In this document: in pieces, positions 6,250 through 32,070 of the stretch
Layout of the letters: each line of letters begins with the position of its first letter
How positions within the stretch are numbered: the first letter of the stretch is position 1
Assembly (NCBI GenBank): GCA_963741925.1
Contig: CAVUJU010000005.1
Span: forward strand, 2,625,447 to 2,689,446
DNA length: 64,000 nt
Direction: 5' to 3'
Origin: an uncultured Acidobacteriota bacterium
GTDB lineage: Bacteria > Acidobacteriota > Thermoanaerobaculia > Multivoradales > DATKCC01
The notes under the pieces: generated by a model
Seen by the model: the letters and a program-made list of their open reading frames with translations, nothing else
What the model was told of the DNA's origin: nothing
The model's database searches: none
Translations under genes and position numbers: made by a program

Positions 6250-7720
6250 ATGGCCCTCGAACAGAAGCTCTCCCTCAGGCTGTCGCAGAAGCTGGTGATG
6301 ACGCCGTCACTCCAGCAGGCGATCAAGCTTCTGCAGATGACCCGCATCGAGCTCGAGGGCTTGATCACCCAGGAGATGACGGAGAACCCGACGCTCGAGG
6401 AGGCCCAGCTCGAGCCGGCGCCGGAGGAAGCTCCCCCGGACGAGCCGGAGAAGGACCGGACCACGGACGAGCTGGACCACGACGAGTCCCTGGAGAACAT
6501 CGATCTCGACGAGTTCTTCGGCGACTACATGGAGAAGCTCGGGCTACGCCTCGGTGCGCGAGTTCCGGGAGGCGCCGCCGCTCGAGAACACCCTGACCCG
6601 CGAGCCCGACCTCTACGACCACCTCCTCTGGCAGCTCCACATGAGCAACGCCCCCGAGCGCCTCCGGACGCTGGCGGAGCTGATCATCGGCAACCTCGAT
6701 CCCCAGGGCTTCCTGGTCGCGGACCCGGAGGAGATCCAGGCGCTGCGCGACCCGAGCGCCAACGGCGCCGCGGAGGCGGAGGAGGCCTACAGCGCGGAGG
6801 AGGTGGACGAGGCCCTGGCCCTGGTGCGGAGCTTCGACCCGCCGGGCGTCGGCTACCGGACCCTGCGCGAGAGCTTGATCGCCCAGCTCGATCGCGACGG
6901 GGTGGCGAAGGAGTCCCTCGCCCGCCGCATGCTCGACGAGCACTGGGACCTGTTCCTCAAGCGCCAGTACGCCATGATCGCCAAGCGGCTCGACGTCGAG
7001 CTCCACGACCTCGAGCCGGCGGTCGAGCAGATCAAGAACCTCGAGACCCGCCCCGGCCACCGCTTCGGCAGTGACCGCACCCACTACATCGAGCCCGACG
7101 TCTACGTGCGCCGGGTGGGCGAGGAGTGGGTGATCCAGATCAACGACGACGGCATGCCGCGCCTCCGGGTGAGCAAGGCCTACCGGCGCATGCTCGCCAC
7201 GATGCGCAAGGAGGGCCGGCAGGCCGAGGCCCAGCAGTTCATCAAGGAGAAGATCCGCTCGGCGGTCTGGCTGATCAAGTCGATCGACCAGCGCCAGCGG
7301 ACGATCCACAAGGTCGCCAACTCGATCGTGCGCCAGCAGCAGGAGTTCCTGGAGCACGGGATCGACCGCCTGCGGCCGATGGTCCTGCGCGACGTCGCCG
7401 AGGACATCGGCATGCACGAGTCGACCGTCTCCCGGGTGGTCTCCAACAAGTACATCCACACGCCGCGCGGCGTGCTGCCGATGAAGTACTTCTTCCACAG
7501 CGGCATCGACCGCGAGTACGGGGAGGAGATCTCCTCGCTCACCGTGAAGCGCAAGATCCAGCACATGATCGAGGACGAGGACCCCAAGAACCCGCTGTCC
7601 GACAGCGAGCTGATGCGCATGCTCAACCGGGAGGGGATTCAGATCGCCCGCCGGACCGTCGCCAAGTATCGCGACGAGCTCAACATCCCCTCTTCGACCG
7701 AGCGCAAACAGATCTTCTAG
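6250..7720 (+). CDS. rpoN: RNA polymerase sigma-54 factor RpoN, with an apparent +1 frameshift near 6541-6543
   Basis: Region I (MALEQKLSLRLSQKLVMTPSLQQAIKLLQ) lies in frame 1 up to ~6540. The rest (YASVREFREAPPLENTL...RpoN box ARRTVAKYRDELNIPSS) lies in frame 2 from 6554. Removing one G from the ctcGGGcta run restores ...DYMEKLGYASVREF.... Confidence 0.8.
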
Positions 7721-7750
7721 GAGCTCTTCCGAAGGGAGGCGAGACCCGCG

Positions 7751-8305
7751 ATGAACATCGAGTACGTCGGAAGGAACTTCGAGGTCGACGACAACGTCCG
7801 GAAGTACACCGAAGGCAAGCTCGCCAAGAAGGTCACCAAGTTCGTGGGCGACCCGGTCGAGATCCGCGTCACCCTCGAGACCGAGAAGCACCGCAACATC
7901 GCCGACCTCCACATCGCCCACAAGCACGGCATCCTCCAGGCGACCGAGGAGACCGGGGACATGTACGAGGCCATCAACATGGCCGTCGACAAGGTGGAGA
8001 AGCAGGCCCGGCGCTCGAAGAAGAAGTTCATCGACAAGCGTCGGCGCGCCGACCGCGTGACGACCAACGGCCAGCGCTGGCCCGTCGACGTCCTCGCCCG
8101 CGAGAGCCTCGGCGGCGAGACGGGCCCGACGATCATCAAGTCCAGTCATCTCCCGATCAAGCCCATGTCCATCGAGGAGGCCGCCCTCTGGCTCGAGAAC
8201 GGCAAGAACGAGTTCGTCGTCTTCCGGGACTCCACCTCGAACCGGGTCAACGTCCTCTACAAGCGCAAGGACGACAACTACGGCCTGATCGCGCCCGAGC
8301 TCTAG
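7751..8305 (+). CDS. hpf: Ribosome hibernation promoting factor (long form)
   Basis: 184 aa with the N-terminal RaiA/HPF fold (MNIEYVGRNFEVDDNVRKYTEGKL...) plus the C-terminal extension typical of long HPF. Sits in the conserved rpoN-hpf-ptsN context. Confidence 0.9.
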   Translation: MNIEYVGRNFEVDDNVRKYTEGKLAKKVTKFVGDPVEIRVTLETEKHRNIADLHIAHKHGILQATEETGDMYEAINMAVDKVEKQARRSKKKFIDKRRRADRVTTNGQRWPVDVLARESLGGETGPTIIKSSHLPIKPMSIEEAALWLENGKNEFVVFRDSTSNRVNVLYKRKDDNYGLIAPEL

Positions 8306-14103: not shown

Positions 14104-15508
14104 TCAGCGAGTCCAGCGCAGGGTGACCAGGGTCTCGTCGTCGGTGCCGTCGCCGTTCGCCCGCTGGAAGGTGTTGGCGGCGTGCTCGGCGGTCAGGTCG
14201 ATCCCCGGCAGGATCCCGAGACGAAGGCCCAGGTCGACCTTCTCCCAGTCCCAGGCGCCGCTGGGGAAGGGCGTCACGGCGGGGTTGGCGAAGCGGTTGT
14301 CGAGCGCCGAGTAGCGAACCGCGGGCTGGACGTAGGGGAAGAGCTGGCGGCCGGCGACCGCCCAGCGCAGCGGCAGGTCGAGAGCCCAGGCGAGCTCGAC
14401 TTCGTAGCCGCTGCGCGGCAGCGACGCCACCTCCTGATCCACGTACTGACCGAACAGGGAGAGGCCGCCCAGGTAGAGCCAGAGGTTCGCCCCGGCCTCG
14501 GTCTTGGTGTCGCCGGAGAGGCCCGGGTAGGGGTACTGGTTCCAGGGGCCGCGGAGGAAGTCGAGGTCGCCGCCGTAGAAGGTGCCCTGGAGCTCCACCG
14601 TGTCGGCCAGCTTGCGGCGGTAGCCGTAGACCATGAAGTCGATCGCCCGCTCGCCCGCGGCGTCGGCCCAGCGCCCGCCGGCCGCCGCACCGACCTCGAG
14701 GTTGCCGTCGGCGTCGAGCCCTTCGACCTCGGCGTCGTAGAGGATCGGGATGCCGCTCTTGAGCGTCGGATCGGGGTGCGGGCGCAGGAAGGCGTCGGTG
14801 CCGTTGTCACCCGCCAGGGCGTTCGGGTCGCGGAAGAAGAGGGGGTTGCCCTGGGTGAGGGAGCCCTTCACGTAGAGATGGCCGCCGAGGTCCAGGCCGA
14901 GCTCTAGACCGAAGTCCTCCATCCGGTTGAAGGCCGTGGACACGACGCCGTAGGACTCCAGGTGGCGGTCGTTCTGGCGCTCCATCTTCGGGAACTTGCC
15001 GATCTGGACGTAGCCGCCGAACCCGTCGGCCGGCGTCGCGGGAACGATCGGCCGGCCGAAGCGCAACCAGGCCTCGTCGACGTCCACCTGGCGGTCGCCG
15101 GAGGTGGGGTTGCGGTCGTAGAGGTCGAAGAAGTCGACCTTGGCGTGCGCCTGGACCGCCTCGCCCCAGCGCGCGTCGGCGTAGAGGGTGAAGACGGAGA
15201 AGCTCCAGGTGGTCGCCGGCGTTGACCGTCTCGAGGAACGCGCGGTCCTGGCCCACCGGCAGCATGTCGGGCGTGAAGGGGAAGTCGACCGGGAAGCGGT
15301 TCTCGTCGCTGTGCCGGAAGTGCGTCCTGGCCTCCAGCCGGAGGTCCACCCGCAGGCTCGGCGCGTCGCCGGCCTCCGGCGCGGCCGCCTCCGGACCCGC
15401 GGCCCCGCCCTGGGCCGCCGCCGGCCCGGCGAGGAGGACACCCACGAGCAGGAGGAAGGGAAGGGGGCGAGAGCTTGGGATCCGCGCCCTCAGAGCCAGT
15501 GAAGCCAT
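14104..15508 (-). CDS. Putative outer-membrane beta-barrel protein, apparent frameshift near 15205-15215
   Basis: Signal peptide MASLALRARIPSSRPLPFLLLVGVLLAGPAAAQG in one frame (ATG 15508). After ~15210 the reading continues in a second frame (FSVFTLYADARWGEAVQAHAKVDFFDLY...), with alternating hydrophobic beta-strand character to the C-terminus (...LVTLRWTR). Confidence 0.5.
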
Positions 15509-15540
15509 CTCCGGCCTTACCGCGGGCGCCCCCGAATCAC

Positions 15541-15605
15541 CCCTCGCAGCGTTGCGCCTCCTCGAGGTAGGCCCTGCTACGCCTGCGTCTGCGCGCCCGG
15601 CGAGG
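15541..15605. repeat. Dispersed ~60-bp intergenic repeat family B (cgacgcaggcgtagcagggcctacstcgaggaggmgcaacgc), reverse orientation
   Basis: Reverse complement matches the copies at 30650-30715 and 42590-42665. Lies between convergent operons. Confidence 0.5.
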
Positions 15606-15925
15606 GGCGCACGGACCACCGCGCTCCGCGCGGCGGTGCCCACGCCCTCGCGACGGGCGGAGAGGTCTTCACAGGCTCTCAGCGGAGACGATCCACGGGT
15701 CCTTGCCAACGGGTGGCTCCCTCTGTGAGTCCGACGAGAAGGACCGACCCTACCACGGAGCGCGGTCCGTGCCGGAGCCCCTCGCCGAGCCACGAGGCCC
15801 GCCCGGGCGGCCGGGGAAGGTGGAAGCGGCGGCCCGCGTTGTAGAGGCTGAGCCCGCTTCGAGTCTGGTAGGCTCGCAGGTCGACGACGCCCACAGCGAA
15901 ACCGTAGAGATCCCCAACCCTTCGA

Positions 15926-19440: not shown

Positions 19441-20772
19441 ATGAGCCAGGGTCCCGTCCCGCGGCCCCGGCGCTTCTTCATCGAGACCTGGGGCTGTCAG
19501 ATGAACGAGCTCGACAGCCAGAGGATGGCGGGGCAGCTCATGCAGCAGGGGCTGTTGCCGACCCGCGAGCCGGCGGACGCGGACGTGCTCTTGCTGAATT
19601 CCTGTAGCGTACGCGACAACGCTGAAAACAAGGTCTACTCCCGGATCGGTGAGTACCGGGCCCTCAAGAAGGACCGCGAGCTCCTGATCGGCCTCTGTGG
19701 CTGCGTCGCCCAGCAGGAGGGGGCGGCGGCCCTGGATCGGGCCCCCGAGCTCGACTTCGTCCTCGGACCGGCGCGGGTGGGGGAGCTGCGCGAGGTCCTC
19801 GCCCGCCGCCTGGCCGGAGAGCGGGTGGTCGCCACCGGGTTCCCCGAGACGCGGGCCTTCGACCTCGACGCGATCTCCCGCGACGGCGGCTACAAGGGGA
19901 TGGTCACGTGCATCGAGGGGTGCGACAAGCGGTGCACCTTCTGCATCGTGCCCCGGACCCGGGGCCCGGAGCGCTGCCGGCCCATGGCGGAGATCGTGGC
20001 CGAGGTTCGCCACCTGGTGGCCTACGGCTTCTGCGAGATCGAGCTCCTCGGCCAGACGATCAACCACTGGCGCGAGCCCGGGGGCGAGCAGGACTTCGCC
20101 GACCTCCTGGACGCCGTCGCGCCCCTCCCGGGCGTCGAGCGCCTGCGGTTCATCACCTCGTACCCGCGGGACTTCAGCGACGAGATGATCGCCGCCTTCG
20201 CGCGCTACCCGAACCTCTGTCCCTACCTCCACCTGCCCGTCCAGTCCGGCTCCGATCCCGTCCTCCGGCGCATGGGCCGGGGCTACACCGTGGCCTCCTA
20301 CCTCGGCCTGGTCGACCGGATCCGCGCGGCCCGCCCCGACGTGGTCCTCTCGACCGACCTGATCGTCGGCTTCCCGGGCGAGACGGAAGCGCAGTTCCTG
20401 GAGACGGTTCGTCTCGTCGAGCGGGTGCGCTACGGGTCGCTCTACGCCTTCAAGTACTCGCCGCGGCCGGGGACCGCCGCCCCGCGCCTCGACGGTCACG
20501 TGCCGGTGCCGGTGGCCAACCGCCGCCTCAACGAGCTCTTCGCGGTCCAGGCCCGGATCCAGAGCGAGCTCAACCGGGAGCTGGTGGGGAAGGCCTACGA
20601 GGTCCTGGTGACCGGATGGGGTAAGCAGGCCGGCTTCCAGACCGGCCGCACGCCCTGTCACCGCACGGTGAGCTTCGCCACCGGCGGCGAGCCCGCCGAC
20701 CTCGGGAGCCTCGTGCCGGTCGTCGTGGAGCAGGCCTACCCTCACAGCCTGGTCGGCCGCCGGGCAACTTGA
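19441..20772 (+). CDS. miaB: tRNA-2-methylthio-N6-dimethylallyladenosine synthase (radical SAM methylthiotransferase)
   Basis: MTTase N-terminal domain (RFFIETWGCQMNELDSQ...LLNSCSVRDNAE), radical SAM CxxxCxxC (CDKRCTFC) and a C-terminal TRAM-like region. Confidence 0.85.
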   Translation: MSQGPVPRPRRFFIETWGCQMNELDSQRMAGQLMQQGLLPTREPADADVLLLNSCSVRDNAENKVYSRIGEYRALKKDRELLIGLCGCVAQQEGAAALDRAPELDFVLGPARVGELREVLARRLAGERVVATGFPETRAFDLDAISRDGGYKGMVTCIEGCDKRCTFCIVPRTRGPERCRPMAEIVAEVRHLVAYGFCEIELLGQTINHWREPGGEQDFADLLDAVAPLPGVERLRFITSYPRDFSDEMIAAFARYPNLCPYLHLPVQSGSDPVLRRMGRGYTVASYLGLVDRIRAARPDVVLSTDLIVGFPGETEAQFLETVRLVERVRYGSLYAFKYSPRPGTAAPRLDGHVPVPVANRRLNELFAVQARIQSELNRELVGKAYEVLVTGWGKQAGFQTGRTPCHRTVSFATGGEPADLGSLVPVVVEQAYPHSLVGRRAT

Positions 20773-20803
20773 CCTTCGGGAAGCCGCCCCTCAGAATAGG
20801 TCC

Positions 20804-21304
20804 ATGCCAGAGACCGCTGAAGAGCTTCGCATGGAGATCAAGGGGCTGATGCTCGATCCCGCCTCGAACGTCCCCATCGTCATCCTCCGCGACGAGGAGA
20901 GCGACGTGTTCCTCCCGATCTGGATCGGGGTGTTCGAGGCGAACGCCATCGCCCTGCGCATCGAAGGCGTCGAGCCGCCCCGGCCGATGACCCACGATCT
21001 CCTCCTCTCGAGCCTCCAGAGCCTCGGCGCCGTCATCGAACGGATCGTGATCTCCGACCTCCGGGACAGCACCTTCTTCGCCATCATCCACCTGGACCGC
21101 CGGGGCGAGAAGCTCACCCTCGACTCCCGTCCGAGCGACGCCATCGCGCTCGCGCTGCGGGCCAACGCCCCGATCTTCGTGCTCCGCGCCGTCCTCGAGA
21201 AGGCCAAGGCGGTGGACGTCGACGCCGGCGCGTCGGACGAGGAGAAGATCCGCAAGATGCTCGAGGAGCTCGGTCCCGAGGACCTCGGCAAGTACACGAT
21301 GTAA
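20804..21304 (+). CDS. Bifunctional nuclease domain (DUF151) protein
   Basis: 166 aa. IVILRDEESDVFLPIWIGVFEANAIA...RPMTHDLL...DSRPSDAIALALR matches the BFN/DUF151 fold. Confidence 0.7.
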   Translation: MPETAEELRMEIKGLMLDPASNVPIVILRDEESDVFLPIWIGVFEANAIALRIEGVEPPRPMTHDLLLSSLQSLGAVIERIVISDLRDSTFFAIIHLDRRGEKLTLDSRPSDAIALALRANAPIFVLRAVLEKAKAVDVDAGASDEEKIRKMLEELGPEDLGKYTM

Positions 21305-21385
21305 GGTCGGCCCGGCGCTCTCGGGCGCCTCCTGCTGCAACTCCGCATCTCCACGCGCCGCCTGCGCTCCGCACTTTCCTAGCGA

Positions 21386-22153
21386 GGCTCCGCCTCAAAC
21401 CGACGAGGCGTCTGAAGCGTCTCCGGCGCCACGGGTCGCCGGTCCCCCGCCCACGCCGACCGATCACGGCTGCGCTCCTCGGAACGGCGACTCCAGACCG
21501 CCAGGTTCATCGGATGCCCCCCGCAACCCCTCGATCCCCTTCCCACCCCACGGGGGGGAAGGGGACGGTTGATCGGATGCCCCCCGCAACCCCTCGATCC
21601 CCTTCCCACCCCACGGGGGGGGAAGGGGACGGTTGATCGGATGCCCCCCGCAACCCCTCGATCCCCTTCCCACCCCACGGGGGGGGAAGGGGACGCCCCC
21701 ACCCTCTCGGTCTGTTGCTCGAGGAACTCGGCTCGTTCGTCACGATTCTGGCCTGATCAGACATCGAGTGAAGCTCCGCCTCAAACCGACGGGGCGTCTT
21801 GAGCGCCTTGGGCTTGCTGAGTCGCAGGTCCCCCGCCCACGCCGACCGTTCACGGCTGCGCTCCTCGGAACGGCGACTCCAGACCGCCAGGTTCATCGGA
21901 TGCCCCCCGCAACCCCTCGATCCCCTTCCCACCCCACGGGGGGGAAGGGGACGGTTGATCGGATGCCCCCCGCATCCCCTCGATCCTCTTCCCACCCCAC
22001 GGGGGGGAAGGGGACGGTTGATCGGATGCCCCCCGCATCCCCTCGATCCCCTTCCCACCCCACGGGGGGGGAAGGGGACGCCCCCTCCCCGTATCGCTGC
22101 GCCGAAAAACTTGGCTCGTTCGTCACGACTCTGGCCTGATCAGACATCGAGTG
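21386..22153 (+). repeat. Two tandem copies (21386-21771; 21772-22153) of a ~385-bp composite repeat element, each containing three tandem ~64-bp hairpin units (ggttgatcggatgccccccgcaacccctcgatccccttcccaccccacgggggggaaggggac)
   Basis: Read directly. 64-bp arrays at ~21503-21697 and ~21890-22085 have no unique spacers. Each unit holds the palindrome ccccttccc/gggaagggg. Flanking conserved arms are gcctcaaaccgacgrggcgtct... and ...ctcggctcgttcgtcacgaytctggcctgatcagacatcgagtga. ORFs here (PPQPLDPLPTPRGGKG...) are repeat-driven, not coding. Confidence 0.8.
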
Positions 22154-22226
22154 ACCCGTCAACCGTCAAGTGACAGGGTACCTGGCGAGAGGGCCCACCA
22201 GGAGACGTCACTTGACGGTTGACGGG
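22154..22226. repeat. Perfect 20-bp inverted repeat (cccgtcaaccgtcaagtgac ... gtcacttgacggttgacggg) with a 33-bp spacer, upstream of parA
   Basis: Read directly. The same element recurs at 30598-30751 with a nested insertion. The arms contain TTGAC motifs. Confidence 0.7.
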
Positions 22227-22368
22227 CCACTAGCTGCGCCTAACTCCCTCAATTCCAGATGGTTACGCATCATGTCGGCGCGCCGACATCGGCGCGCCGA
22301 CGAGGTTCGGCCGCCCCGCCTCGCGTCTTGACCTCCCGGGACCCATCCTGTAGATTCCGGGCCGTCCC

Positions 22369-23127
22369 ATGATCATCGCGATCACCAACCAGAAGGGCGG
22401 AGTGGGGAAGACGACCACCGCCATCAACCTCTCCGCGGCCCTCGCCAACAAGGGTCTCCGGACCCTGCTCATCGACCTCGATCCCCAGGCGAACAGCTCC
22501 ATGTCGTTCGTCGACGTCCACGCCCTGGGGCCGTCGATCTACGAGGTCCTCACCGAGACCGACCGATCGCTCCCGGAGATCCTCCAGCCGGTCGCCCACG
22601 TGCCGAACCTGGAGATCGCCCCGGCGAGCATCTCCCTGGCCAAGATCGAGGCCAAGCTCCTCGGAGAGATCGACAGCCACTTCCGCCTCAAGGACGAGCT
22701 CGTCTGCGTGCGCGATACCTACGACTACGTGGTCATCGACACGCCGCCGACCTTGGGCATCATCACGGTCAACGCGTTGGTCGCGGCGACCCACGTGCTG
22801 ATCCCGATCCAGTCGAGCTACTTCGCCCTCGAAGGCACCGACGACCTCCTCGAGACGATCGACAAGATCAAGCAGCGGGCGAACCCCGAGCTCCAGCTCC
22901 TGGGCGCCCTCATCACCCTGTACGACAAGCGCACCCTCCTGTCCCGCGACATCCAGGAGCAGATCTCCGGCGTCTTCGGCGGCAAGGTCTTCAAGACGCT
23001 GATCACCAAGAGCGTCCGGCTCGAAGAGAGCCCGGCCTACCGCGAGTCGATCTTCACCTTCGCCCCGACGTCGAGCGGCGCGGCAGAGTACTACCAGCTC
23101 TCCGAGGAGGTCCTCGGCCGTGTCTAG
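22369..23127 (+). CDS. parA: Chromosome partitioning ATPase ParA/Soj
   Basis: Deviant Walker A KGGVGKTTT. Full-length ParA similarity over 252 aa. Confidence 0.9.
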   Translation: MIIAITNQKGGVGKTTTAINLSAALANKGLRTLLIDLDPQANSSMSFVDVHALGPSIYEVLTETDRSLPEILQPVAHVPNLEIAPASISLAKIEAKLLGEIDSHFRLKDELVCVRDTYDYVVIDTPPTLGIITVNALVAATHVLIPIQSSYFALEGTDDLLETIDKIKQRANPELQLLGALITLYDKRTLLSRDIQEQISGVFGGKVFKTLITKSVRLEESPAYRESIFTFAPTSSGAAEYYQLSEEVLGRV

Positions 23128-23986
23128 CCCCAAGCGTGGCCTTCCGGTGCGAGTCAAGATGCGCCACGACAACCACTTCGTCGAGGAGCTCACGGCCCGC
23201 CACGAGGTGCCGGTCGGGCGCATGGTGCCCCTGGCCGCCATCGAGCCCGACCCGAACCAGCCGCGGACGATGATGGGCGATCTGGGCGAGCTGGTGGGGT
23301 CGATCCGCGAGCGCGGCGTCCTCGAGCCGATCCTCGTGCGCCGTCTCGACCCCGACACCGGGGCCGACGACGACGCGGGCAGCGAGGCCTTCCGGATCAT
23401 CTCGGGCGAGCGGCGCTGGCGGGCGGCACAACAAGCCGGCCTGTTCGAGGTGCCGGTCATCGAGATGGACGTGACCGAGCAAGAGGCGCTCGAGATCGCC
23501 CTGATCGAGAACCTCCAGCGCAAGGACCTGACGCCCTTCGAAGAGGCCGAAGGCTACAAGGCGCTCGCCGAGCGCCACGGCTACACCCACGAGGAGATCG
23601 CCGAGGCGGTGGGGAAGGCGCGCTCGGTGGTCACCGAGAGCCTGTCCCTCCTCCAGATGCCGCCCCGGGTACGCGACACGGTCCAGGCCCTCGGGCTGTC
23701 GTCGAAATCCCTGCTCCTGGAGGTCCTGAAGGCGGGCGAGGAAGACGAGATGATCCGCCTCCTCGAGGAAGTCTCCAGCCACGGCCTCAACCGCGACGAC
23801 CTCCGCCGCCGCCTCCGCAACCGGGACCGGGCGAGCACCCAGAGCGGCCGCCGCAAGCCCTACGCCTTCAAGTTCCGGGCGCCCGACAAGAGCTTCACGC
23901 TCAACCTCACCTTCCGCCAGAGCGAGGTGGAGAAGGACGATTTGATCCAGGCCCTGGAGCAGATCCTCTCCGAGCTCCGCGGGTAG
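23120..23986 (+). CDS. parB: Chromosome partitioning protein ParB/Spo0J
   Basis: ParB box GERRWRAAQQAGL and HTH region (GYTHEEIAEAVGKARSVVTESLSLL). Overlaps the parA stop. Confidence 0.9.
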   Translation: MSSPKRGLPVRVKMRHDNHFVEELTARHEVPVGRMVPLAAIEPDPNQPRTMMGDLGELVGSIRERGVLEPILVRRLDPDTGADDDAGSEAFRIISGERRWRAAQQAGLFEVPVIEMDVTEQEALEIALIENLQRKDLTPFEEAEGYKALAERHGYTHEEIAEAVGKARSVVTESLSLLQMPPRVRDTVQALGLSSKSLLLEVLKAGEEDEMIRLLEEVSSHGLNRDDLRRRLRNRDRASTQSGRRKPYAFKFRAPDKSFTLNLTFRQSEVEKDDLIQALEQILSELRG

Positions 23987-23987
23987 A

Positions 23988-24045
23988 CCGGATCCCCCCC
24001 GCGCGCATCCCCTCGTTTCCTTTCCCACTCCCAGGGGAAAGGCCT
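23988..24045. repeat. Hairpin repeat singleton (cctttcccactcccaggggaaagg) related to family A, immediately after parB
   Basis: Palindrome read directly. A variant of the ccccttccc...gggaagggg motif. Probably a terminator-like stem-loop. Confidence 0.5.
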
Positions 24046-24908
24046 GACCGCGATTCGACCGGGCGGCTGCCCGGCTGGGAGATCTGTCCCCCGAGTCACC
24101 ACGCCTCGTGAAGCGGCCGAGCTCCGTCTCGGCCGGACGAGCGTCCGGGAGGGCGTCGGCGGGACGATCGCACCGCAGCCAATATGGTGCACCGGCCTGC
24201 CATGCCGAGTCGCCATCGTCTGTCTCGATAGGCTTCTGCGACATATTCACCCACGGCATTTCCGCAGGCCATCCACAGGGCCCGAGCATGGGGAGAGCCG
24301 CGAGGCATGCGAGGTATGGGGTCTCGGGGCCGGGGCGCTCGGCTCGACGGTCGGTGCCTACGGAGGCGTTTGGCCGGCCGAGACGGAGCTCGGCCGACGG
24401 GGGTGTTGCCGGGAGGTCGTCCGGGCCTCCGCTGGTGGCTCGTTGCTTGCCGTGGGGTTCGCCCGGCCGAGGCGGAGCTCGGCCGCTTGTACGCCCGCGA
24501 GGGTGCATGGTCAGAGAGGTGCGAGTCCACTCCAGGCATACGCTCTCCGGCCTGTAATCGACTCTGACTGCGTCGCCGCGAGGCGGGGTGGGGAGTAGGA
24601 GGAGATGAGCGATCAGTCCGTAGGCAACGAACCCGATTCGGCCGGTAGGACTCGGCGAGCCTGCAAGCGAATGGCGAAGCCCGGACCCGGGAGAGCCGGG
24701 GTGCCCGTCGCGCTGAGGGGTAGCGTGCGAAAGCGTGGGCGGGGGGCCTACAGGTGGTTGGGGACGGAATGATCGCGACGGCCAGGCACCGTAAGCGGGG
24801 AGACCTGTCGTCCACGAGGAGAAGCAGGGCGGCAGGAGTCAGAGCTTCCATAGTAGCGAGGAAGCGCCGTAATGGGCGTGGAGCGAAGGGAAGCAGGAAG
24901 GTGGATGC

Positions 24909-26246
24909 GTGACGGCCAGGACGAGAGACGAGACCCCGGCGCGAGTGGGGCGAGCCCCTAACCCCGGCGGAGAGGTCCGGTCCCGATGGGGCTGGGCCGA
25001 ACCCTCGGTCTGGACGGAGCGCATGCTGCGGGCCCTGGAGACCGGGGTCCGAGGAGGGACGTGGTTCAGCCTGATCGACAAGGTCTGCCGGAAGCAGACG
25101 CTTCTGCGCGCGTTCGAGAGAGTCGAGCGCAACGGGGGCGCCGCGGGGGTAGATCACGTCACCGTGGATCACTACGGATCGCGCCTGGAGGAAGAGGTGG
25201 AGACGCTGTCGGCGTCCTTGCGGGACGGTAGCTACCGCCCGCAGGCGGTGCGTCGGCGGTGGATCCCCAAGCCGGGAAGCCGCGAGAAGCGGCCCCTGGG
25301 GATTCCGACGGTGCGCGATCGGGTGGTGCAGGGCGCGTTGCGCTTGGTCCTGGAGCCGATCTTCGAGCGGGATTTCGCCGAGCACAGCTACGGCTTCCGC
25401 CCGGGGCGCGGGTGCCGGGAAGCGCTGGAGCGGGTCGAGGAGCTCCTCGACTCGGGCCACACCTGGGTGGTGGACGCCGACCTGCGCCGGTACTTCGACA
25501 CGATCGATCCGGAGCGCCTGCTGGCGCGGGTGCGCGAGAAGGTATCGGACGGGCGAGTGCTCGCCCTGGTCGAGTCCTTTCTCGAGCAAGAGGTACTGGA
25601 CGGACTGGAGAGCTGGACGCCCGAGCGGGGAACCCCGCAAGGCGCGGTGATCAGCCCCCTACTGGCCAACATCTACCTCGACCCGCTGGACCATCTTCTG
25701 GCCCGCGAGGGCTTCGAGATGGTGCGCTACGCCGACGACTTCGTGATCCTGTGTCGGAGCGAGACCGAGGCCCGCCGGGCGCTTGCCCTGGTGGAGGCGT
25801 GGACGGCCCAGGAGGGCCTGAGCCTTCACCCGGACAAGACGGCGGTGGTGGATACCACCGAGCGGGGTGGCTTCGACTTCCTGGGGTACCACTTCGAACG
25901 GGGCTACCAATGGCCCCGCGACAAGAGCCTCCGGAAGCTCAAGGACACCCTGCGCCGCAAGACCCGGCGCACCAACGGTCACAGCCTCGATCGGATCACC
26001 TGGGACGTCAGCCGGACGTTGCGTGGTTGGTACGAGTACTACCGCTACAGCCACCCGACGACCTTCCGGCCGCTCGACCGGTGGATCCGCATGCGCCTGC
26101 GCAGCATCTTACGCAAGCGTCGCCGAGGCCGAGGCCGGGGCCGCGGTCGCGACCACCAGCGCTGGCCCAACGCCTTCTTCGCCGAGCATGGGCTGTTCAG
26201 CCTCGAAACCGCCTATGCCTCGGACCCGCAGTCCTCTCGTAGGTGA
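24909..26246 (+). CDS. Group II intron-encoded reverse transcriptase/maturase (no endonuclease domain)
   Basis: 445 aa. RT blocks include RIPKPGSREKRPLGIPTVRDRVVQ, FRPGRG and the YADD motif (MVRYADDFVILC). The X/thumb domain is followed by an Arg-rich tail. No HNH motif. Confidence 0.9.
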   Translation: MTARTRDETPARVGRAPNPGGEVRSRWGWAEPSVWTERMLRALETGVRGGTWFSLIDKVCRKQTLLRAFERVERNGGAAGVDHVTVDHYGSRLEEEVETLSASLRDGSYRPQAVRRRWIPKPGSREKRPLGIPTVRDRVVQGALRLVLEPIFERDFAEHSYGFRPGRGCREALERVEELLDSGHTWVVDADLRRYFDTIDPERLLARVREKVSDGRVLALVESFLEQEVLDGLESWTPERGTPQGAVISPLLANIYLDPLDHLLAREGFEMVRYADDFVILCRSETEARRALALVEAWTAQEGLSLHPDKTAVVDTTERGGFDFLGYHFERGYQWPRDKSLRKLKDTLRRKTRRTNGHSLDRITWDVSRTLRGWYEYYRYSHPTTFRPLDRWIRMRLRSILRKRRRGRGRGRGRDHQRWPNAFFAEHGLFSLETAYASDPQSSRR

Positions 26247-26257
26247 ACCACCAACCG

Positions 26258-26336
26258 GAGAGCCGGATGCGGGAGATCCGCACGTCCGGTTCGGAGGGAG
26301 GGGGGGCAGGGAATCCAACCTGCCCTCCCTACCCCT
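26258..26336 (+). ncRNA. Group II intron catalytic domains V and VI
   Basis: Sequence folds as described above. Located just after the IEP stop. Confidence 0.7.
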
Positions 26337-26549
26337 ATCATGGGTTCGAGGGGTTGGGCGACGGGGGGCGAGGATCTGGGCGGCGCCGGGCACGACCTCC
26401 GCCGAAGTGGGGATTACATGATGTCAAGTTCGCCGCGTGGCAGGGCACGGCCTTCGCGGGGGCCGAGCCGTCTCCGGCGACCGGAACTTGACATAATGTA
26501 TCTTATCGGACGTTATATCGGCGCGCCGGGTCGCGCCGCACGCCGCGCC

Positions 26550-30024: not shown

Positions 30025-30558
30025 TCACCGGCCGTCGTGCCCGAGCTCACGCCCCAGGGCCGCCAGGCAGCGGCCGAGGATCTTGCGGATGCTCGCGGGC
30101 TGGTAGGCCGTCCGCGAGGCGATCTCCGCCGGCTTCATCCCGAGCCCGAAGCGCAGCCGCAGCACCGCGCGGTGCCGCTCCGGGAGACGGGCGAGCGCCG
30201 CGGCGAGGTCGCGCCGGAGGTCCCCCAGCTCCTGGCCCGGGGGGACCGGCTCGGCGAGGCGATCGAGGAGGTCGTCGTCGATCGAGTCCCACGGTCGGCT
30301 ACGCCGCCGCCGCCAGTAGCGCAGGCTCTGGTTGCGCAGGGTCCCCAGGATCCAGGCCTCGGGGTGCCGGACCTCCCGGTACTTCGTGAAGAGCACGAGC
30401 AGGGCCTGCTGCAGGAGGTCGTCGCCGTCCTGCGGCGGAATCCGGTACCTGTGGAGGAGGGCGACGGCTCGGGGCCGGATGCGCTCCACGACGCCCTGGA
30501 AGCACACCTCGAGCTCCCTGCGATCGTCATCTTCCGCGAGGACTCGGGCCGCACTCAC
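30025..30558 (-). CDS. ECF-type RNA polymerase sigma factor (paralogue 1 of 3)
   Basis: 177 aa. Sigma-70 region 2 (IPPQDGDDLLQQALLVLFTKY...DPEAWILGTLRNQ) and region 4 (ERHRAVLRLRFGLGMKPAEIA). Confidence 0.8.
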   Translation of the reverse strand: MSAARVLAEDDDRRELEVCFQGVVERIRPRAVALLHRYRIPPQDGDDLLQQALLVLFTKYREVRHPEAWILGTLRNQSLRYWRRRRSRPWDSIDDDLLDRLAEPVPPGQELGDLRRDLAAALARLPERHRAVLRLRFGLGMKPAEIASRTAYQPASIRKILGRCLAALGRELGHDGR

Positions 30559-30597
30559 GCAATCACGATAGCAGCCGGTGCTCCGGCGTGTCTACTG

Positions 30598-30751
30598 ACC
30601 AGTCAACCGTCAAGTGACAGGGTATCTGGCGAGGATTTCTCGTCGCTGGCCAGGCGCTCCGACGCAGGCGTAGCGGTGCCTACGTCGAGGAGGAGCAACG
30701 CCGCAAGCGGCGAGAGGGACCGCCAGGGCACGTCACTTGACGGTTGACGGG
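30598..30751. repeat. Second copy of the 20-bp-arm inverted repeat element, carrying a nested ~90-bp insertion of repeat family B; lies upstream of ECF sigma paralogue 1
   Basis: Arms gaccagtcaaccgtcaagtgac / gtcacttgacggttgacggg. The inner segment gcgctccgacgcaggcgtagcggtgcctacgtcgaggaggagcaacgcc matches the copies at 15541-15605 and 42590-42665. Confidence 0.7.
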
Positions 30752-30801
30752 TCACTACTCTGATGACGTAATTTATTCTCTGAATCGGGAGAAAGGTCGC
30801 C

Positions 30802-31341
30802 CTACAGCTCGGCGAGAAAGTCCTCTCGCCGGAGCCCCGCCGCCTTGAGCTCGCGCCCGAGGAGCACCAGGCTTTGCGTCGTCAGCTTGCGCATGCCCGT
30901 CGACTCGTAGCCGAGCTCCTCCGCGATCTCCGAGCTCTTGTGGCCGAGGCCGTAGCGCAGGCGCAGCAGGTCCTGGCACCGGCGGGGCAGCCTCGAGATG
31001 GCGGCGTTCAGGTCGTGACGCAGGTCGGCCTGCTCCTGGGGAGGCGACTGCGGCCCGGCGAGCACGTCGAGGATGGCGTCGTCGACCGCCTCGTAGATCG
31101 CCTCGTCCTGCTGGCGCCAGTAGAGCTTGCACCGGTTGCGCAGGGTCGAGAACAACCAGGCCTCCGGGTCGCGCACGCTCTCCCACTTGAAGACCAGCGC
31201 CACCAGAGTCTCCTGGAGGAGGTCCTCGGCATCCTCGCGCGGGATCTGGAAGCGCGCGAGCTCGCGCAGCAGGCGTGGATGTTGCTGGAGGAGGAAGGCG
31301 TCGGCCGGCCGCTCGGCCGCTTTCGGATGGAGGCGGTTCAT
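30802..31341 (-). CDS. ECF-type RNA polymerase sigma factor (paralogue 2 of 3)
   Basis: Start chosen at MNRLHP (AAGG RBS 6 nt upstream). Carries IPREDAEDLLQETLVALVFKW...DPEAWLFSTLRNRC...CQDLLRLRYGLGHKSSEIA. Confidence 0.75.
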   Translation of the reverse strand: MNRLHPKAAERPADAFLLQQHPRLLRELARFQIPREDAEDLLQETLVALVFKWESVRDPEAWLFSTLRNRCKLYWRQQDEAIYEAVDDAILDVLAGPQSPPQEQADLRHDLNAAISRLPRRCQDLLRLRYGLGHKSSEIAEELGYESTGMRKLTTQSLVLLGRELKAAGLRREDFLAEL

Positions 31342-31527
31342 CCTTTCGCCCCGCTGGAGAGCAAGCTCCATCCTACCACCTCGAGCGCGTCCGGGTGTCT
31401 CGAACCCGGGGTCGGGGGTCGGTCCGGGCGGCATCTCGCCGCTCGGCGCATCAGCGCCGGCGCCCAGGGGCCGTACGACCTCCGCCTCGATGGAACCGCG
31501 GAGTCGCACAGGATCGCCGCTTCCGCC

Positions 31528-32070
31528 TCAGGTCTCCTCCGGCTCCTTGAAGAAGCCGGAGGCGGTGAGCTGCCGCGTCAAGGCGGCGAGACACCGACTG
31601 GTGATCTTGCGGATGCTCGACGCCTGGTAGCCCATCCGCTCGGCGACCTCGGCAGGCTTGTAGCCGAGGCCGTAGCGCAAGCGCAGGAGAGAGCGGCAAC
31701 GCTCCGGGAGCTCGGCGATCGCCCGCTCCAGGTCGGCCTGGACATCCTGCTGCACCTGGGGCGTGCCACCCGGCTTGGCGACGAGCTCCAGGATGGTGGT
31801 GTCGACCGAGTCGTAGAGGCGCGAGCGCTTGCTGCGCCAGTACATGAGACACCGGTTGCGCAGGGTGGCCACCAGCCAGGCCTCGGGATCCCGGATCTTC
31901 TTGCGCTTGTAGATCAGGGTGAGGACCGCCTCCTGGAGGACGTCCTCCGAGTCTTCCGGCGGGATTTGGTAGCGGTAGAGAATCCGCTCCAACCGACGCT
32001 GGAGGGTGCCGAGCAGCTCTTCGAGCGACCAGTCGCTCTGTGTGTCGAGGTTCTGCTGCGTTGGATTCAT
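31528..32070 (-). CDS. ECF-type RNA polymerase sigma factor (paralogue 3 of 3)
   Basis: 180 aa. IPPEDSEDVLQEAVLTLIYKR...DPEAWLVATLRNRC...CRSLLRLRYGLGYKPAEVA. Confidence 0.8.
   Translation of the reverse strand: MNPTQQNLDTQSDWSLEELLGTLQRRLERILYRYQIPPEDSEDVLQEAVLTLIYKRKKIRDPEAWLVATLRNRCLMYWRSKRSRLYDSVDTTILELVAKPGGTPQVQQDVQADLERAIAELPERCRSLLRLRYGLGYKPAEVAERMGYQASSIRKITSRCLAALTRQLTASGFFKEPEET

Follow-up and report, generated by a model that had tools for sequence, protein, structure and literature searches.

What kind of DNA fills the spacer in front of parA in an uncultured bacterium of the Acidobacteriota, and how might it have come to be there? The question is raised by a stretch of 64,000 nucleotides (nt) from contig CAVUJU010000005.1 of GenBank assembly GCA_963741925.1 (class Thermoanaerobaculia; positions 2,625,447 to 2,689,446, hereafter the window), in which two long composite repeats, A and B, lie side by side between a gene encoding a bifunctional nuclease (BFN) domain and parA, each with an array of three short hairpin-forming units in its interior. 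Among the repeats to be considered are those called BoxC, PIT or TMECO, which have been known in Escherichia coli since the 1990s, with earlier work by Bachellier and by Maher. BoxC/PIT/TMECO is the closest known kind of repeat to the unit described here, since the architecture of a leader and two arms is the same; what is new is the phylum, the sequences of the blocks, an extended hairpin, the head-to-tail arrays and the embedding of the units in longer mosaic modules.

The locus upstream of parA

When analysed with Tandem Repeats Finder (TRF), positions 21387-22154 resolve into two adjacent composites of 386 bp (period 386, 2.0 copies, 91% matches, score 1311). The inner array of composite A extends over 21504-21695 (period 64, 3.0 copies, 98% matches) and that of composite B over 21890-22080 (period 63, 3.0 copies, 96% matches). 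This is in agreement with an earlier note on this DNA, made from the sequence alone, which had described two tandem copies of about 385 bp with three 64-bp units each and had held that they do not form a CRISPR array. A constant 8-nt linker joins neighbouring units, the arrays are pure tandem repeats of 96-98% identity, and neither reading of the sequence nor TRF revealed unique spacers between the units of A or B; the locus is therefore not a CRISPR-type array.

The BFN gene (20804-21304) and parA (22369-23127) flank the composites, with a MiaB-like gene further upstream and parB and a group II intron downstream. No gene was called in 21305-22368 by our own caller, which is based on GC content at third codon positions (GC3), and the A/B region contains no promoter-like and no terminator-like site, the promoter-like site of parA (22328-22356) lying beyond it. 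A scan for tRNA and tmRNA genes gave none. No Rfam family fits the region, whether the whole window was searched at gathering thresholds or 21250-22400 at E-value thresholds; the only matches returned were to the group II intron and to microRNA-like hairpins attributable to chance. The A/B region is thus non-coding repeat DNA, neither a gene nor a CRISPR array.

Architecture of the unit

The repeated unit is about 60 nt long and consists of a C-rich leader, a G/C hairpin and a ACGCCCCC tail. The hairpin comprises 10+3 bp with the arms TCCCCTTCCC..GGGAAGGGGA; 98% of its alignment cells are paired, and compensatory changes occur in two pairs. A 64-nt unit folds at about -33 kcal/mol, and the hairpin forms in either orientation. 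The leader, with the consensus GGAT(C)GCCCCCCGCA(A/T)CCCCT-CGA, is 25 nt long and conserved to the same degree as the stem, so that a plain hairpin is an insufficient explanation of the unit.

A relation between leader and stem becomes apparent when the leader is read outward from the 3-nt loop CGA and compared with the 5' arm. Among 106 distinct units, the two present C:C, T:T or A:T at nine of ten positions in at least 96% of cases, which on the G-rich strand correspond to the purine-motif triads G·G-C, A·A-T and T·A-T. Scored for triads, the true register reaches 0.90, and no shifted register exceeds 0.59. The design of BoxC/PIT/TMECO, i.e. three consecutive blocks with triad-compatible bases, a stem of more than 7 nt being allowed a single mismatch, is therefore present here, and the complementary G-rich strand, whose 45-nt motif reads TCCCCTTCCCCCCCGTGGGGTGGGAAGGGGATCGAGGGGTTGCGGGG, is predicted to fold as a hairpin with its purine arm covered by a third strand.

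All three blocks (leader, 5' arm and 3' arm) change jointly between subfamilies. The main family combines CAA or CTA in the leader with CTT in the 5' arm and GAA in the 3' arm, and a variant family combines ACT or TCT with TCT and AGA. At leader position 6, a T-A pair is faced by A (62 units) or T (36 units), and a C-G pair by C.

Distribution and gene context

One genome per prokaryotic species was scanned with the pattern CCCCTCGNTCCCCTTCCCNCCC, giving at least 92 stretches; among the matches listed, nearly all came from metagenome-assembled genomes (MAGs) of Acidobacteriota/Thermoanaerobaculia, with up to about 25 stretches per MAG, and the arrays comprised 2-5 units with a period of 62-70 nt. 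An iterated profile search of 746 kb then yielded 155 non-overlapping units in 113 clusters. Single units make up 94 of these clusters; 18 of the 19 arrays are purely head-to-tail and span 2-7 units, and one is mixed. Within the window, the unit core pattern occurs nine times when up to three mismatches are allowed, against 0.12 expected from shuffles. The units are thus dispersed, lineage-associated, intergenic hairpin repeats, and to that extent the earlier view of a lineage-specific family holds; the three-block motif itself, on the other hand, is known from Proteobacteria (PMC4666352).

All but four of the 113 clusters lie clear of called genes. A unit is present in 30% of convergent spacers, compared with 15% of tandem and 13% of divergent ones (chi-square p 0.0014). 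Where the flanking genes are in tandem, a unit lies a median of 41 nt past the upstream stop codon and 128 nt short of the next start, being nearer to the stop in 35 of 55 cases (p 0.06), and in terms of orientation relative to the upstream gene there is no strand bias (28 vs 26). The earlier note had placed the hairpins always just after gene ends, which is true of all copies in the window; elsewhere it is a tendency only, as 11 clusters lie in divergent spacers. The genes flanking the units are ordinary housekeeping genes. Genes enclosed by oppositely oriented units (L070, L048, L009 and L058) were set aside as candidates, having turned out to be ordinary housekeeping genes as well.

Composites as mosaics

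Although A and B are indeed adjacent, as the term back-to-back implies, they did not arise by simple tandem duplication, being mosaics with two differing cassettes: cassettes L3 and R2 and the units are 98% identical between them, L2 69% and R1 37-74%. The cassettes of A match those of L090 and L044, and cassette R1 of B resembles that of a third composite in the window, C. In L090 a left arm, two units and a foreign hairpin are followed by four unit-plus-right-arm modules, three of them in tandem and one inverted. How many units stand between recurring arms varies, as had been proposed earlier.

The left arm is found only in the window (three copies), in MFD01721 (L090, L044, L033), in MFD05684 (L062) and in SRP214966_co3_65 (L005), and the right arm in the window, L090 and L044, with a diverged form in L062 and L033. 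An autonomous parent of the composite was also sought in metagenomes, where the pattern for the right arm had 0 matches and that for the left arm 14, of which only one is real (L110, a copy of L062). Given how sparse these matches are in MAGs and metagenomes, the arms are low-copy and confined to a narrow clade, whereas the unit is widespread.

Composite B is followed by a large palindrome with perfect 20-bp arms, CCCGTCAACCGTCAAGTGAC..GTCACTTGACGGTTGACGGG (fold energy -53.9 kcal/mol, z -8.3), which belongs to the inserted block. In L044 the right arm is followed by a shorter relative, CCGTCAAccttcaaTTGACGG. The large palindrome is absent from L093 and L094, and it may be a further module of the mosaic.

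The third copy, which had been described as reversed and as holding one unit, is composite C, with arms 74-89% identical to those of the other window copies. [quoted passage not shown] The single units reported near 23988 and 58325 were likewise recovered. On either side of the latter, at 58316-58335 and 58430-58449, stand identical 20-nt copies of the 3' end (last codons) of a MacB/FtsX-type permease gene. A more distant copy at 341-460, in contrast, was missed by the unit profile and is a member of another hairpin family, GGCCGGCCG-N8-CGGCCGGCC, usually followed by CTTCAT, one hairpin of which is inserted inside the L090 composite.

Table 1. Coordinates of the repeats and their parts in the window and in selected loci
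Feature	Position	Strand	Remarks
CTAG	21379-21382		Directly before the whole block
Whole block	21383..22239	+	Composites A and B and large palindrome; not in the BFN-parA spacer of siblings
Left arm, composite A	21386..21508	+	nhmmer and alignment with other window copies, L090, L044, L033, L062, L005
Three head-to-tail units, composite A	21509..21698	+	TRF and profile matches; units 21509-21567, 21572-21631, 21636-21698
Three-block example, unit A3	21649..21693	+	Block 1 (leader) 21649-21658 CGCAACCCCT, loop 21659-21661; block 2 21662-21671 TCCCCTTCCC; block 3 21684-21693 GGGAAGGGGA
Right arm, composite A	21699..21771	+	Type shared with L090 and L044
Left arm, composite B	21772..21894	+	Cassette L2 69% identical to A
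Three head-to-tail units, composite B	21895..22083	+	TRF and profile matches; units 21895-21953, 21958-22016, 22021-22083
Right arm, composite B	22084..22154	+	Cassette R1 37-74% identical to A; resembles copy C
Large palindrome	22152..22232	.	Perfect 20-bp arms; part of inserted block
CTAG	22230-22233		Near right end of the whole block
Single degenerate unit	23988..24042	+	Begins 2 nt past parB stop codon; found by pattern and profile
Composite C	42715..42985	-	Left arm 42847-42985, one variant-type unit 42787-42846, right arm 42715-42786
Single unit	58336..58392	+	Between MacB/FtsX-type gene and AidB-like gene; pattern and profile
GGCCGGCCG..CGGCCGGCC hairpin family	335-365, 415-445, 24104-24135, 24362-24396, 24452-24486		Also L090, L093
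MITE-like family, about 165 bp	42555-42719, 15489-15615, 30590-30757		Also L085, L063, L013, L044, L028
X-Y-unit-Z elements, examples	L037 60-330, L075 743-1000		L003-L092 from SMAG_U6239, SMAG_U6236

Filled and empty sites in sibling genomes

The ParA protein of the window is 95% identical to that of MAG MFD01721.bin.1.17 (locus L093), and L094 is another relative at the same level of ParA identity. The window has 1064 bp between the BFN gene and parA, where L093 has 130 bp and L094 has 165 bp. The flanks of this spacer align on both sides, including the promoter-like site of parA and a palindrome, TGTCGGCGCGCCGACA, and the block at approximately 21383-22239 is missing in both relatives. At the site after parB, the window carries one degenerate unit, L093 four, and L094 and L095 none. 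Both orthologous loci that were compared (two only, with no control set) thus differ in unit content, and on the grounds of the filled or empty site upstream of parA and the one, four or no units after parB, the unit family is dynamic on the time scale of sibling species.

Several further features were observed around parAB. The palindrome TGTCGGCGCGCCGACA (22272-22301 in the window) is conserved, every relative examined (L093, L094, L096) having one or two copies of it upstream of parA; it could be an operator or a parS-like site, though it has no match to the usual parS consensus. After parB, a conserved non-coding block at 24180-24285 is shared with L093, L094 and L096, among them relatives with a ParA identity of no more than 85%; its terminal ..TTCCGCAGGCCATCCACAG is similar to a DnaA box, and the block may be an origin-related or RNA element. 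Also after parB, just past a hairpin repeat, lies a group II intron (about 24520-26340), with an open reading frame for a reverse transcriptase/maturase (24909-26246; RVT_1, GIIM) and a match to Rfam Intron_gpII (26258-26338). It is not at that place in L093 and L094.

Boundaries and target sites

A short target-site duplication of fixed length, as is characteristic of MITEs, was not found among 84 single units when these were compared with mismatched-flank controls. In 80 of the 84 singles, direct repeats in the flanks reach 5-9 nt at most, the same as in the controls; one single has a repeat of 10 nt, still within the control range (up to 13 nt), and three have repeats of 20-32 nt, among them the unit at 58.3 kb with its 20-nt copies of the permease gene end. 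Most singles, therefore, show no duplication beyond chance.

The longer elements have more recognizable ends. As a rule CTAG or CTAA stands in front of a composite, and the composite finishes with ..CATCTAG. The MAGs SMAG_U6239 and SMAG_U6236 have the unit at the centre of a larger dispersed element of the order X-Y-unit-Z, X being a GC hairpin and Y and Z modules; YTAG usually stands in front of these elements, their last letters are ..TTTCGT(T)CTAG, and this end often falls precisely on the stop codon of the converging gene. At many loci a gene ends 22-37 nt beyond the 3' side of the unit. In one case, the orthologous gene end present in the window reveals that the CTAG was part of the target. 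For a single unit, an empty site was sought by comparing window 7720-7751 with L075, where the spacer is too diverged and the boundaries beyond the shared stop codon cannot be defined. This pattern of YTAG and stop codons would fit either site-specific insertion next to TAG or the survival of insertions just past stop codons.

Three additional observations concern the SMAG elements. X is sometimes present on both sides of an element as direct repeats of 21-32 nt. In some SMAG units, a second hairpin is inserted in the loop. Finally, the module just 5' of the unit in these MAGs (..GGCCTACTCGAAGCATCG) resembles the end of the permease gene at 58.3 kb in the window, as if flanking sequence had been captured and had then spread with the unit.

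Comparison with known repeat systems

The intrastrand-triplex repeat BoxC/PIT/TMECO has been described in E. coli and other Proteobacteria with the published pattern CCCTCNCCC N3-6 GGGNGAGGG N3 GGGNGAGGG (Holder et al. 2015, PMC4666352). According to the same work, TMECO occurs exclusively between genes and without strand bias, no mobile-element gene is linked to it and its loci are unusually variable between strains, and BoxC/PIT had displayed no promoter or terminator activity in earlier E. coli experiments (cited in PMC4666352). The units described here resemble it in being almost always intergenic without strand bias, in differing between close relatives at the two loci compared and in having no mobile-element gene attached in the 896 kb searched.

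The likeness extends to the blocks themselves. Those of the variant subfamily, CCCTCACCC(T), CCCTCTCCC and GGGAGAGGG, equal the E. coli copy between hrpB and mrcB: read at its published coordinates, that spacer contains CCCTCACCCtaaCCCTCTCCCtcaaGGGAGAGGG, and L090 has CCCCTCACCCTcaaTCCCTCTCCC..GGGAGAGGGA. This comparison was made by eye, as a MAFFT alignment put the blocks out of register, and a blastn search of E. coli genomes with a variant unit gave no match, probably owing to the low-complexity filter and the short words. Variant units in L017, L033 and L090 match CCCTCNCCC..GGGNGAGGG..GGGNGAGGG with relaxed loops; in the window, the relaxed pattern (loops 3-14 and 3-5) gives 0 matches, and the main subfamily, with TCCCCTTCCC, GGGAAGGGGA and AGGGGTTGCG and one conserved mismatch, departs from the strict published pattern.

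Further differences from BoxC/PIT/TMECO lie in the host, here the class Thermoanaerobaculia of the Acidobacteriota, in the three additional pairs of the hairpin and in the first "loop", which is 11 nt here as against the published 3-6. Moreover, head-to-tail arrays reach up to seven units, whereas E. coli has single copies or inverted pairs; the units are embedded in longer modules (arms, or X-Y..Z in the SMAG MAGs); and they lie mostly after gene ends, in contrast to E. coli TMECO, which is more often upstream of open reading frames. A literature search found no earlier report of BoxC/PIT/TMECO repeats in Acidobacteriota.

Other classes of repeats are less similar. With repetitive extragenic palindromes (REPs), and the bacterial interspersed mosaic elements (BIMEs) and REP doublets forming hairpins (REPINs) built from them, the units have in common that they are short, G/C-rich extragenic palindromes in high copy, mostly in tandem and convergent spacers, which form mosaics with other motifs and vary between strains. 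In contrast to REPs, they have no unpaired GTAG tag: no GTAG stands beside the stem, and the G-rich strand reads CG-TCCCCTTCCC with T and C paired. The unit also contains a long conserved leader, and the arrays are head-to-tail rather than alternating, which contradicts the description as BIME-like in the earlier note; no inverted REPIN doublets were seen (one mixed cluster of 19). As for the REPs with a CGTC tag (Di Nocera et al. 2013, PMC3733652), the G-rich-strand hairpin here is likewise preceded by CG, starts with TC and, in the 896 kb searched, has no associated transposase. However, "CGTC" has its T and C paired here and a CCA tail is lacking, the stem of 10+3 bp does not begin with two A/T pairs, the loop is 4-9 nt as against 4-5, and head-to-head (HH) dimers predominate in the CGTC families where head-to-tail arrays are found here.

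Nor does the description as MITE-like fit the composites well. They are small (270-390 bp), non-coding and dispersed, with filled and empty orthologous sites, as MITEs are, but lack terminal inverted repeats, none being found to join the ends of composite A or composite C, and regular target-site duplications. True inverted ends are present in a separate MITE-like family of about 165 bp (Table 1), a copy of which abuts composite C; its terminal inverted repeats of about 21 bp read AGCCTGTGAA..TCTCCG / CGGAGA..TTCACAGGCT.

Origin and spread of the repeats

In the reading that we favour, and which we regard as somewhat more probable than improbable, the unit is a BoxC/PIT-type repeat adopting non-B DNA that expands by slippage and template switching. 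Hairpin- or triplex-prone units would stall replication; stalling would provoke slippage, giving rise to arrays, as well as template switching or recombination between copies, giving rise to mosaics, to adjacent composites such as A and B and to occasional long flanking duplications. The element would accordingly be selfish or neutral unstable DNA that is tolerated just past gene ends, rather than a gene or a dedicated regulatory site, and copies would persist where they are least harmful, just past stop codons.

It is nevertheless important to stress what weighs against this reading. Slippage and template switching are deduced from their outcomes, and in vivo footprinting of the E. coli TMECO did not support a stable triplex (PMC4666352). 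With respect to the triplex geometry, the main family has a conserved mismatch at leader position 9, the C-rich composition makes chance C:C matches easy, and the three-way covariation appears in two or three subfamilies and so reflects few independent events. Furthermore, most loci were retrieved with an exact pattern that fixes leader positions 1-5 and block 2, where variation is under-sampled; the informative variation is that at leader positions 6-10, in block 3 and in the extra units found by profile. Gene positions come from our own GC3-based caller. Lastly, many full elements are bounded by YTAG and, in the SMAG MAGs, end exactly at stop codons, which looks like site-specific insertion and would fit an enzyme better than random template switching.

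Such an enzyme could be a single-strand HUH tyrosine transposase of the RAYT or IS200/IS605 TnpA type, moving the units or composites as non-autonomous elements and inserting them 3' of a short target without duplication, as is the case with REP/REPIN or palindrome-associated elements. In favour of this, the unit is a hairpin whose 5' flank is conserved, and most copies are devoid of target duplication; YTAG usually precedes the composites and the longer SMAG elements and also closes them, many abut a stop codon exactly, boundaries are common to copies at different loci, orthologous sites are found filled and empty, and tyrosine transposases flanked by inverted repeats have been reported in other Acidobacteria (PMC3733652). 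A search of 896 kb, however, yielded neither an HUH..Y motif nor, with IS200 TnpA and E. coli RAYT as tblastn queries, any match, a weak negative, given that these are usually single-copy genes and that the search covered 896 kb. The head-to-tail order of the units, rather than the inverted pairs typical of REPINs, likewise speaks against transposition of this kind, as do the difference between left and right YTAG in most copies, the lack of an unpaired GTAG tag and the fact that E. coli BoxC has no associated mobile-element gene (PMC4666352). On balance we consider such a transposase rather unlikely. A still less probable explanation is that the hairpins are selected at the RNA level, as bidirectional terminators or as barriers against 3' exonucleases. 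Some REPs have been shown to stabilise transcripts against 3' exonucleases, and the enrichment of units in convergent spacers and close to stop codons, the stable G/C stem in either orientation and the position of all window copies after gene ends would suit such a role. A role as terminators or in mRNA stability had been put forward in the earlier note, and it fits poorly with the absence of a T-run beside the hairpin in either orientation: the tails read ACGCCCCC on one strand and ATCGAGGGG on the other, and a terminator scan of 20700-24600 returned 0 terminator-like sites. The lack of orientation bias relative to transcription counts against a strand-specific RNA role. A terminator, moreover, needs neither a 25-nt leader nor covariation between leader and stem, 11 clusters stand in divergent spacers, siblings have no element at the same genes, and BoxC/PIT had no terminator activity in E. 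coli (cited in PMC4666352).

The remaining alternatives concern the locus rather than the unit. That the 386-bp composite is a structured non-coding RNA gene in paralogous copies is very improbable: its arms are conserved in at least four MAG species and the whole element folds somewhat better than shuffles (z -2.6), but no Rfam family matches at threshold, there is no promoter-like site inside, the left arm has a weak consensus fold (-12 kcal/mol, covariation term -0.2), shuffled sequences fold as well as copy C does (z +1.0), there is no cognate pairing between left and right arms, and siblings dispense with the locus. Scarcely credible, in turn, is a centromere-like or origin-associated site linked to parAB, or a CRISPR-like array. 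Tandem copies do lie directly upstream of parA and another unit directly after parB, yet the same units stand beside unrelated housekeeping genes in many contigs, the block is missing in siblings with 95% identical ParA, the conserved feature upstream of parA is the different palindrome TGTCGGCGCGCCGACA, and unique spacers between the repeats are lacking.

Other features of the window

Two further features were observed elsewhere in the window. A gene for an RHS-repeat protein (47109-51008) is accompanied, 5.7 kb downstream, by a second copy of its C-terminal core region that is 80-87% identical, an arrangement resembling orphan toxin cassettes (47109-51008, 55526-56212, 52599-55259), and a DnaG-like primase gene lies between the RHS gene and the second core copy; the segment with the RHS and primase genes suggests a genomic island. 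At 30025-32070, there are three tandem paralogous genes with repeated segments, whose orthologs in L093 carry Sigma70_r2/r4 domains, which points to σ factors of the extracytoplasmic function (ECF) group.

Implications

For the study of Thermoanaerobaculia, the unit family explains the long repeat-filled spacers and probable assembly breakpoints in their MAGs, and masking or annotation is advisable to avoid confusion with CRISPR arrays, small genes or RNAs. The three-block design found here also points to testable consequences, namely expansion of arrays and hypervariable spacers beside core genes such as parAB.

A broader idea, which we put forward tentatively and with less confidence than the favoured reading of slippage and template switching, is that the units of Thermoanaerobaculia and the BoxC repeats of Proteobacteria form one ancient or convergent class of repeats in which triple-helix geometry itself is selected. 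If so, the three-way covariation would be comparative evidence for an intrastrand DNA triplex in vivo, and the arrays, long flanking duplications and cassette-swapped composites would be the footprint of triplex-induced fork stalling and template switching. The function of BoxC/PIT/TMECO in E. coli is not established, and the covariation found here provides a comparative handle on whether triplex geometry matters; were the two indeed one selected class, this lineage would be a natural system for testing what BoxC-type repeats do.

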